A DNA stretch of 64,000 nucleotides from an uncultured Eubacteriales bacterium (lineage in GTDB: Bacteria > Bacillota > Clostridia > TANB77 > CAG-508): contig CASFHP010000021.1 of NCBI GenBank assembly GCA_949294555.1, positions 1,860-65,859 of the forward strand, in the 5' to 3' direction. The notes beneath the pieces are model-generated. The model was not told the DNA's origin, made no database searches, and was given only the letters and a program-made list of their open reading frames with translations. Position numbers and translations under genes: made by a program. This document shows, piece by piece, positions 25,132 through 37,146 of this stretch (the first letter of the stretch is position 1; each line of letters starts with the position of its first letter).

Positions 25132-25161
25132 ATATATATCTTTAGTTCATAATGAAAAATG

Positions 25162-25324
25162 GAAAGCTATTATTATATTTTTCGCTATCCCAACACTTTA
25201 CATACTCTAACTAAATCAGCTCCCATGGGACTATCGCTGATTTAATAAGAGTATGTAGCGTGTCGGTCCAGTATGTAGCGTGTCGGTCCCCACGAAACCC
25301 GCTTAAAATATAATAATAGCTTTC
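25162..25324 (+). repeat. Family-A element, copy 1: ~123-nt conserved core inside a 20-bp perfect palindrome
   Basis: Arms 25162-25181 and 25305-25324 are exact reverse complements. The core 25182-25304 matches the reverse complement of 56958-57060. It contains a 20-nt tandem duplication (25250-25269 and 25270-25289). Confidence 0.8.
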
Positions 25325-25415
25325 TACTTTTTAATAACAAATAAATATAAATAAACTAAAGTTAGAATAAAAACACCTGAATTTACCAATAATAGTAATA
25401 AAGGTGATTTTTATT

Positions 25416-36960: not shown

Positions 36961-37146
36961 AAAGCAGTAATATATAAATATTTTATTCATTAAATGGCTG
37001 GCATTACAAAATATACAAATTCTAACATTATAAAGCAGGCACCTCTCACAGCAAGTCTGAGATTCTCCTACTTGATAATGTAAGAATTTGTAATATTTCT
37101 TCATTAGCACATTTAATTTCATAAAATATTTATATATTACTGCTTT
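36961..37146 (+). repeat. Family-B element, copy 1: 136-nt core inside a 25-bp perfect palindrome
   Basis: Arms 36961-36985 and 37122-37146 are exact reverse complements. The core begins ttcattaaatggctggcattac and shares about 90 nt, nearly identical, with copy 2. Confidence 0.8.

Follow-up and report, generated by a model that had tools for sequence, protein, structure and literature searches.

The 64,000-nt stretch of DNA analysed here (the window) raises the question of what a core of about 100 nt might be that is present twice, in opposite orientations, and each time at the centre of a long inverted repeat. The window belongs to genome G000, a metagenome-assembled genome (MAG) of an uncultured Clostridia bacterium (1.9 Mb, 28.5% G+C, 68 contigs); coordinates without a prefix are positions in the window, C numbers denote contigs and L numbers loci. 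An earlier sequence-only reading took the repeat, here called family A, either for a small non-autonomous element that targets the apex of hairpin terminators and is reminiscent of IS200/IS605-derived elements, or for a structured RNA whose outer helix covaries; both cores with their perfect arms, and the tandem duplication of 20 nt, are present in the window at the coordinates that it gave. Our analyses indicated that family A is a new family of transposable elements of the miniature inverted-repeat type (MITEs) with ordinary terminal inverted repeats (TIRs) and target-site duplications (TSDs). The account that we consider probable is that of a MITE of ~197 bp, made of a ~47-bp TIR, a 103-nt core and a second ~47-bp TIR, which is mobilised in trans and whose arms are kept complementary by template switching.

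Alignment of the arms of 91 distinct copies revealed a modal length of 40-48 nt and three zones: an outer one, (GTTACA)GTTCAGTGT, a variable middle one of ~15-18 nt whose commonest form is CCAATTCCTCGAAGG, and an almost invariant inner one, TATATATATTATATTTT, which abuts the core. Many non-orthologous copies are 1-4 changes away from a master arm, GTTCAGTGTCCAATTCCTCGAAGG, and the termini of the element read 5'-GTTAC(A)GTTCAGTGT ... ACACTGAACTGTAAC-3', with a conservation of only 50-80%. Judged by this alignment, the arms of most copies are diverged copies of one ~47-bp terminal inverted repeat, and the flanks, which had been thought to differ completely between copies, share a common consensus. 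The arm of copy 2 is of the consensus type while copy 1 has a short atypical shell, and shells unlike the consensus were noted by eye at ~15 family-A loci.

For the empty-site search, 1.7-kb regions round six G000 copies were compared with five close relatives. The whole element, arms included, is absent from the sister genome G010 at the loci on C10, C3 and C18, and from G073, G082 and G077 at the C24 locus, giving four G000 loci with element-free orthologous sites. The flanks of the C18 locus are 98-99% identical between the two genomes and its empty site contains neither arm, which argues that the arms were not copied from the target; an origin of the palindromic arms by copying of the target flank was ruled out on this ground. 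At the C24 locus, the empty sites have a single ACATAAT(TTT), whereas in G000 the element is bordered by this sequence on either side. These comparisons showed that the arms are part of the inserted unit and that the whole unit is present or absent at orthologous sites. The proposal of a small non-autonomous mobile element is thus borne out, while targeting of the apex of hairpin terminators is not supported as a description of the present-day copies, since at all four loci sister genomes lack the arms together with the element.

Target-site duplications were sought with GTT...AAC anchors in 22 independent loci, one copy being taken per orthologous group; the anchor is the true end only in the 10 loci with a distance of 44-49 nt between terminus and core. 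Among these, the 8 nt just outside the two ends matched at 8/8 positions in three loci (GAATTTTC, ATAAAAGT and AATTTTTA), at 7/8 in one and at 6/8 in two, a seventh locus with a 6/8 match having a misplaced terminus, while no locus reached 6/8 in the next 8 nt outward. Over the 22 loci the mean 8-nt identity was 4.0, against 2.66 in shuffled pairings, and none of 2000 shuffles reached the observed value. The duplicated sequences vary from locus to locus. Conserved shared termini and, at the well-preserved copies, 8-bp direct duplications replace the earlier statement that the element has no TIR or TSD. The unit measures ~47 + 103 + 47 = 197 bp and has no open reading frame of note, and its 8-bp TSD points to a transposase that makes staggered cuts. 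Of the properties by which MITEs are recognised, family A shows small size and lack of coding capacity, conserved TIRs, a TSD of fixed length and dispersed polymorphic copies; an autonomous partner insertion sequence (IS) was not found. The sequence-only reading would have been refuted by a core that proved to be a fragment of a known IS or intron with ordinary TIRs and TSDs; this is partly the case, as the TIRs and TSDs are there while a parent IS was not found.

A whole-genome count gave 8 full family-A copies in G000, together with a truncated copy, a right-end fragment beside tRNA genes, solo arms and an internal-deletion derivative. One copy (C26:15349-15503) carries a 52-nt internal tandem duplication, and at C9:3546-3632 the core and the right inner arm are almost wholly lost, leaving a hairpin with a 33-bp stem and the loop TATATTATATTTTTCGCTATC. 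The core was detected by a BLAST-type search in 9 of 99 sampled genomes of the same genus, and an exact 19-mer of the core recovered 86 loci in ~22 species-level MAGs, in addition to two chance matches in unrelated bacteria. The carrier MAGs, labelled uncultured Clostridia, Clostridium or Eubacteriales and some of them of chicken gut origin, contain 1-12 copies each. These searches showed that family A is a dispersed multi-copy repeat confined to one clade of a genus of uncultured gut Clostridia. BLAST searches of plasmid and phage collections gave no match to the full element, and two core motifs gave one chance match only among viral contigs, in a GC-rich contig.

The features of the two window copies are collected in Table 1. 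The two cores are 96-97% identical, that of copy 1 being longer because of its exact 20-nt tandem duplication, and the family-A core forms a hairpin with imperfect pairing whose internal loop is asymmetric and conserved (5' TCGCTATCCCAAC, 3' GTCGGTCCCCACGAAACCCGCTT). Both copies fold into one long hairpin (z = -12.6 as RNA and -8.7 as DNA), none of 200 shuffles being equally stable. The inner 14 nt of the copy-1 left arm are the conserved inner arm of the family, and the segment at 25327-25345, the partner of its tentative outer left arm, now pairs poorly by eye. The copy-2 arms (56923-56957 and 57061-57095) are perfect over 31 bp (56927-56957) and extend to 35 bp with one mismatch (to 56923), and the outermost ~12 nt of the high-coordinate arm (tagatttgaaaa) are decayed. 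In the orthologue of copy 2 in G010 the core has the same orientation.

Table 1. Family-A features in the 64,000-nt window of genome G000
Feature	Position	Strand	Remarks
Copy 1, left inverted-repeat arm (tggaaagctattattatatttt)	25160..25181	+	22 bp, complementary to 25305-25326, perfect over 20-21 bp
Copy 1, family-A core	25182..25304	+	123 nt: 103-nt consensus and 20-nt internal duplication
Exact 2 x 20-nt tandem duplication (agtatgtagcgtgtcggtcc) in copy-1 core	25250..25289	+	25250-25269 = 25270-25289
Copy 1, right inverted-repeat arm	25305..25326	+	Complementary to left arm
Copy 1, tentative decayed outer left arm (agttcataatgaaaaa...)	25141..25159	.	By eye; weak, shell atypical
Copy 2, low-coordinate arm (right arm in element orientation)	56911..56957	-	Family-type terminus GTTATTGTTCAGTCTGCAATTCC... 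and inner arm
Copy 2, family-A core, 103 nt	56958..57060	-	Inverted relative to copy 1
Copy 2, high-coordinate arm (left arm in element orientation)	57061..57107	-	Pairs to 57095

Alignment of 74 units yielded as consensus a single hairpin of 66 pairs, with compensatory changes at 42 of them. Paired cells amounted to 96.8%, against at most 48% when the partner was slid by 1-3 columns, and 605 cells were changed on both sides, the slid controls giving 89-148. When orthologous copies from different genomes were compared, both arms had changed to a new complementary pair at 52 positions, and 69 further positions had changed on one arm only, some of these being indel artefacts. Since independent evolution of the arms would give almost no double changes, the arms change together in place, and the covariation foreseen for the outer helix is real. 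The mid-arm was rejected as a guide matching the target, the longest word shared with the flanks being 6.67 against 6.50 in the shuffled control. Ectopic gene conversion was rejected as the origin of the odd mid-arms, no unusual mid-arm recurring at a non-orthologous locus.

The core is also found in either orientation. In comparisons between genomes, the orientation varied in at least 6 of 19 orthologous groups defined by flanking DNA, and the core lay opposite with respect to the flanks in 14 of 44 cross-genome orthologous pairs. The cores of L079 and L069 are exact reverse complements (0 mismatches) and those of L122 and L091 differ from this by 1 mismatch; in both pairs the flanks are near-identical over 150 nt on each side and the arms are identical save one base. 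In the CALYAB genome the outer arms are unpaired, and even so the core is found either way round between inner repeats of 20 bp.

Template switching during replication of inverted repeats, or quasipalindrome correction, was reportedly described by Ripley in 1982. Switching of the polymerase between the arms of an inverted repeat results in arm homogenisation and reversible inversion of the spacer (PMC8604942), and it can create, maintain and expand hairpins (PMC8794818 and PMC13100816). The self-correcting arms of family A, its flipping spacer and the few perfect arms of 77-100 nt match these signatures of homogenisation, inversion and occasional arm growth, and we infer that template switching explains both the arm homogenisation and the core flipping, although recombination between the arms or a dedicated invertase would leave the same static pattern. 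The published cases mostly have arms of 7-20 bp and spacers of a few bases, as against arms of ~47 bp and a spacer of 103 bp here; family A further differs in that the phenomenon recurs across a whole repeat family and in that the mechanism is deduced from the repeats. According to the MITE account, a transposase making 8-bp staggered cuts (DDE type) would move family A in trans. After insertion, replication template switching between the closely spaced arms would keep copying one arm from the other, so that the arms would look copy-specific yet perfect; the unconstrained middle of the arm would drift while staying perfectly complementary, and template switching, or recombination between the arms, would reversibly flip the core.

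Sequence comparison of orthologous pairs gave identities of 87% for flanks 50-100 nt away, 81% for mid-arms, 95.5% for the core and 99% for the inner arms, and part of this conservation may be a matter of ascertainment because most loci were found via an exact core 19-mer. Divergence between orthologues and between paralogues was 4.4% and 9% in the core and 19% and 37.5% in the arms, so that the two scale together. The cores group by locus and not by genome (30 vs 10), which makes strong concerted evolution of the cores unlikely. The unpaired motifs ATCCCAAC and GTCGGTCCCCACGAAA are kept in a distant family of G042 and G048, and across subfamilies with unrelated apical loops. At L021, L029 and L030 (G048, G042) this distant relative of the A core is shorter, lies between AT-rich inverted arms and has kept only the loop motifs CTCCCAAC and TGTCGGTCCCCACGAAA.

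Where the neighbouring genes lie in tandem, the plus strand of the core has the direction of the genes at 27 loci and the opposite direction at 8, a further 5 being mixed (binomial p = 0.002). The median distance of the copies is 30 nt from the stop codon upstream and 112 nt from the start codon that follows. An orientation bias that persists despite frequent flipping indicates that orientation matters, to replication or to transcripts. The constraint on the core and inner arms might stem from a site bound by the mobilising enzyme or from an influence of orientation on flanking transcripts. A bolder proposal, to which we give little credence, is that the core is a selected orientation-sensitive module (a folded-DNA or folded-RNA binding site or a 3'-untranslated-region (3'-UTR) element) kept at some ten loci per genome and toggled by inversion between self-repairing 47-bp arms, whose shells can exchange the core A with two other cores, B and C, described below.

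Covariation together with a conserved, oriented core could likewise be taken to mean that family A consists of structured non-coding RNA genes or 3'-UTR RNA modules, with an outer helix selected as RNA (an RNase III-type substrate) and C-rich unpaired motifs (UCCC-type) as the functional surface. The very stable consensus hairpin with its compensatory changes, the conservation of the core above the flanks and of the unpaired motifs, and the alignment of the core plus strand with the flanking genes at 27 of the 35 loci of fixed orientation are in keeping with such a role, which we nonetheless hold to be very unlikely. Within copies, 54 of 2877 arm pairs were mismatched, 25 of them G-T/T-G and 15 A-C/C-A (non-independent orthologues included), so that G-U-compatible mismatches are not significantly favoured and no clear strand-specific RNA signal is seen; nor could selection plausibly watch over each pair in a helix of 47 bp. 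When the copy-1 region was scanned against Rfam 15, with E up to 10, only spurious miRNA-hairpin matches below threshold came up, and simple scans of both window copies and their surroundings for promoter and intrinsic-terminator consensus sequences remained at background level. The apical loops are wholly different between subfamilies, and it is mobile DNA that is marked by insertion polymorphism, TSDs and shared termini. Of the structured-RNA proposal, then, the covarying outer helix stands, while selection on RNA is needless to account for it, given the 25:15 ratio and a documented mechanism at the level of DNA.

Invertons are invertible promoters between inverted repeats, such as those of the Bacteroides Mpi regulon and the RecV switches of Clostridioides difficile. 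Like family A, they are segments of 100-200 bp that lie between inverted repeats in either orientation at several homologous loci per genome. If family A were of this kind, a dedicated site-specific recombinase would flip the core and the orientation would change expression of the neighbouring genes, for instance through read-through or stability of the upstream transcript. The exactly inverted cores between near-identical loci, the CALYAB subfamily with its unpaired outer arms, the invariant inner arms, the 27:8 bias in spite of frequent flipping and the placement of copies shortly past stop codons would all fit. We consider this quite improbable. The scans just described gave no promoter or terminator signal above background at either window copy, and neither copy has an intrinsic terminator (a G+C-rich hairpin followed by a U tract). 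No recombinase was seen linked to the copies, although no genome-wide co-occurrence test was made, and one copy alone lies ~1 kb from a probable tyrosine recombinase, as read from its sequence. Moreover, the whole unit is a transposable repeat with TSDs, for which neither a promoter nor a cognate invertase was found, and both inversion and arm homogenisation are explicable without a recombinase (PMC8604942).

Family A is not the only core in G000. At least three core families (A, B and C) were identified, each placed centrally within inverted arms and bordered by ...TATTTT and AAAATA...; there are also short derivatives with internal deletions. Family B is present in the window at 36961-37146 (C21:38820-39005) and at ~15 other places in G000, for example C4:47343-47541 and C26:2304-2501. 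Its core of 135-139 nt (ATTCATTAAATGGC...CATTTAATTTCAT) has two apex subtypes, occurs in both orientations and is enclosed by arms ending ...ATATTTT / AAAATAT...; a hairpin at C53:5686-5730 resembles an empty shell. Family C (C34:8611-8794, C58:3636-3820, C51:1255-1436, C28:21494-21686 and C8:2732-2922) has a core of ~136 nt (TAAAGAATTCGAATGCGACCGG...) between near-identical 24-nt arms (agaatgttgatatataaatatttt), again in both orientations, and a family-C-related core lies inside GTTACAGTTCAGTAT shells in G025.

The copy-1 site, a spacer between a radical-SAM gene and a YitT-type gene, shows four states among relatives: a short spacer without hairpin in G077 and G055, a bare 26-nt hairpin (aaagccagGTATATATATctggcttt) in G073, a family-B element in G010 and an A core in a short atypical shell in G000. 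In L128, L129, L130 and L133 (G045, G082, G061 and G043), which are orthologous to window positions ~25132-25400, the spacer holds an extra gene of ~190 codons whose product would be a small protein with an N-terminal hydrophobic segment. At L114, L063, L032 and L013 the perfect inverted repeats extend to 70-100 nt and include GGGACGG-type motifs of another repeat family; these are either nested insertions at a palindrome centre or grown arms.

In a different order of events, the module that primarily moves or is exchanged would be the core together with its AT-rich inner arms. It would enter the exact apex of existing palindromes (terminator-like hairpins or MITE shells), perhaps by means of an HUH/Y1-type enzyme specific for single strands or of a recombinase that works on the TATTTT|...|AAAATA junction. 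The shell outside it, with the GTTACAG termini, would then be a separate, older element, and the whole a nested, "Russian-doll" form of the earlier proposal of insertion at hairpin apices. The common junctions of the three core families, the different states of the copy-1 site, the ~15 A loci judged by eye to have non-consensus shells and the four A loci centred in 70-100-nt palindromes speak for it. So do the same outer termini round different cores in other genomes, the position of the most conserved part at the core boundaries and the retention of loop motifs alone in the G042/G048 family, and the 27:8 bias could be the outcome of strand-specific single-strand transposition. We regard this order of events as unlikely all the same. 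Neither G000 nor any of the fetched loci yielded an empty shell of the family-A type, the short candidates (C9:3546-3632 and L304) having one arm truncated and looking like deletion products; every empty orthologous site that was tested lacks the shell too; and core and arm divergence scale together, as expected if the two travel jointly.

The enzyme search bears on the same question. Y1/RAYT-like genes were found in 80 of 100 genomes of the genus, and G000 has two RAYT-like Y1 genes, at C5:17056-17388 and C13:12942-13277, each flanked by a palindromic family of its own (of the gggacaggt...tttgtcg type and the ttggggacggagcaaaaaatcatc type) and not by family A. Near the Y1 genes of relatives, family-A termini gave chance-level matches only. 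Because both G000 genes are flanked by other repeat families, the link to IS200/IS605 that had been suggested is unsupported. What survives of the apex proposal, in weakened form, is that cores may be inserted or swapped at the centre of palindromes: family-A cores always lie exactly midway in a palindromic shell, and the states of the copy-1 site and the A copies in unusual or nested shells fit in with it.

Several observations weigh against the MITE account. G000, the fetched loci and 100 genomes of the genus, which are draft MAGs in which insertion sequences are often unassembled, gave no autonomous element with family-A termini, and searches for a long-spacer inverted repeat with the TATTTT/AAAATA junction or for termini 0.2-6 kb apart found none either. 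The other transposase genes of G000, a broken ISL3-type remnant and a split IS256-type gene, were rejected as partners, no family-type termini lying within 1.5 kb of them. An IS6/IS26 partner had been suspected because of the 8-bp TSD and of a resemblance of the termini to GGTTCTGTTGCAAAG; it was rejected as well, PF13610 being absent from every genome that carries family A. Clear TSDs are confined to a minority of copies, many being decayed, and conservation is lower at the outermost termini than in the core, contrary to what MITEs usually show. The shells of several copies, that of copy 1 included, are unlike the family consensus, and a few copies are centred in palindromes of 77-100 nt without an asymmetric TSD. 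Finally, the conservation of core and inner arms above the flanks and the 27:8 orientation bias are unexpected for a neutral, purely selfish element.

The IS256-type (Transposase_mut) gene of G000 consists of two open halves (C1:20562-21146 and C1:23004-23501) lying ~1.86 kb apart, as if interrupted by an insertion, and domains of the IS1595 and IS4/IS5 types are absent from G000.

The family-A termini recur in genomes that lack family A, while a reversed-pattern control gave none. In G025 they delimit two small elements, one of 51 bp that has a TSD of its own and one of 81 bp, as well as long nested elements with a family-C-like core in both orientations, and in further MAGs they surround other cores. 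The occurrence of the same termini round several interiors argues for a wider MITE superfamily in which the A core is one interior of several. The same termini also lie ~200 nt from five contig ends of G025; these repeats were considered as IS ends and proved to be the long nested MITEs with the family-C-like core. Another repeat family of ~200 nt adjoins the C18 copy (C18:16090-16290, that is L002, query 488-687; also L018:190-400); it has several copies in G055, G077 and G082, and in G061 it lies inside family-type termini (TTACAATTCAGTGTAGAATGC). In G000 itself, one 47-nt hairpin (ccaaactagagagaataaaa-gtatatt-ttttattctctctggtttgg) is found at four contig ends (C2:110234-110280, C16:19-65, C47:5838-5884 and C58:18-64) and marks an unassembled repeat.

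Long-hairpin MITEs include Correia/CREE of Neisseria, RUP of pneumococcus, ERIC/IRU, bcr1 of the Bacillus cereus group, Nezha and Chunjie. Family A resembles them in its size of 100-200 bp, its non-coding intergenic character, its TIRs and TSD, its many dispersed copies with insertion polymorphism and its stable folding when single-stranded or transcribed. The TSD of the best-known members is TA or TTTAT, in contrast to the 8 bp of family A. Family A is further set apart by unusually long TIRs (~47 bp) whose middle third drifts freely and yet stays complementary, by an interior that flips and is conserved above the termini, by termini that carry several unrelated cores and by having no known parent IS. 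Bacterial hairpin MITEs are reviewed in PMC3184786 and PMC10969869. With REPIN-RAYT and IS200/IS605-derived elements family A shares short palindromic intergenic repeats, long hairpins and an orientation bias, but it has TIRs and TSDs, and neither a conserved target tetranucleotide nor a pair of subterminal hairpins.

Under the MITE account, family A would show cleanly, in nature, how template switching can shape all members of a repeat family, producing perfect "covariation" in a 47-bp helix and a flipped 103-nt spacer with neither RNA-level selection nor a dedicated recombinase. In AT-rich gut genomes, repeats of this kind could mislead both RNA discovery based on covariation and inverton callers, and palindromes of the family-A type break MAG assemblies. 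In these small-genome Clostridia, MITE termini serve as shells in which cores are interchangeable. If any part of family A still hides a function, it could be the core, which is conserved and biased in orientation. If the core has a function, this would be a new way of generating switchable sites, and if the core should prove to be selected, toggled and exchanged between shells, the repeats would amount to a modular, recombinase-free phase-variation or cassette-exchange system built from MITEs.

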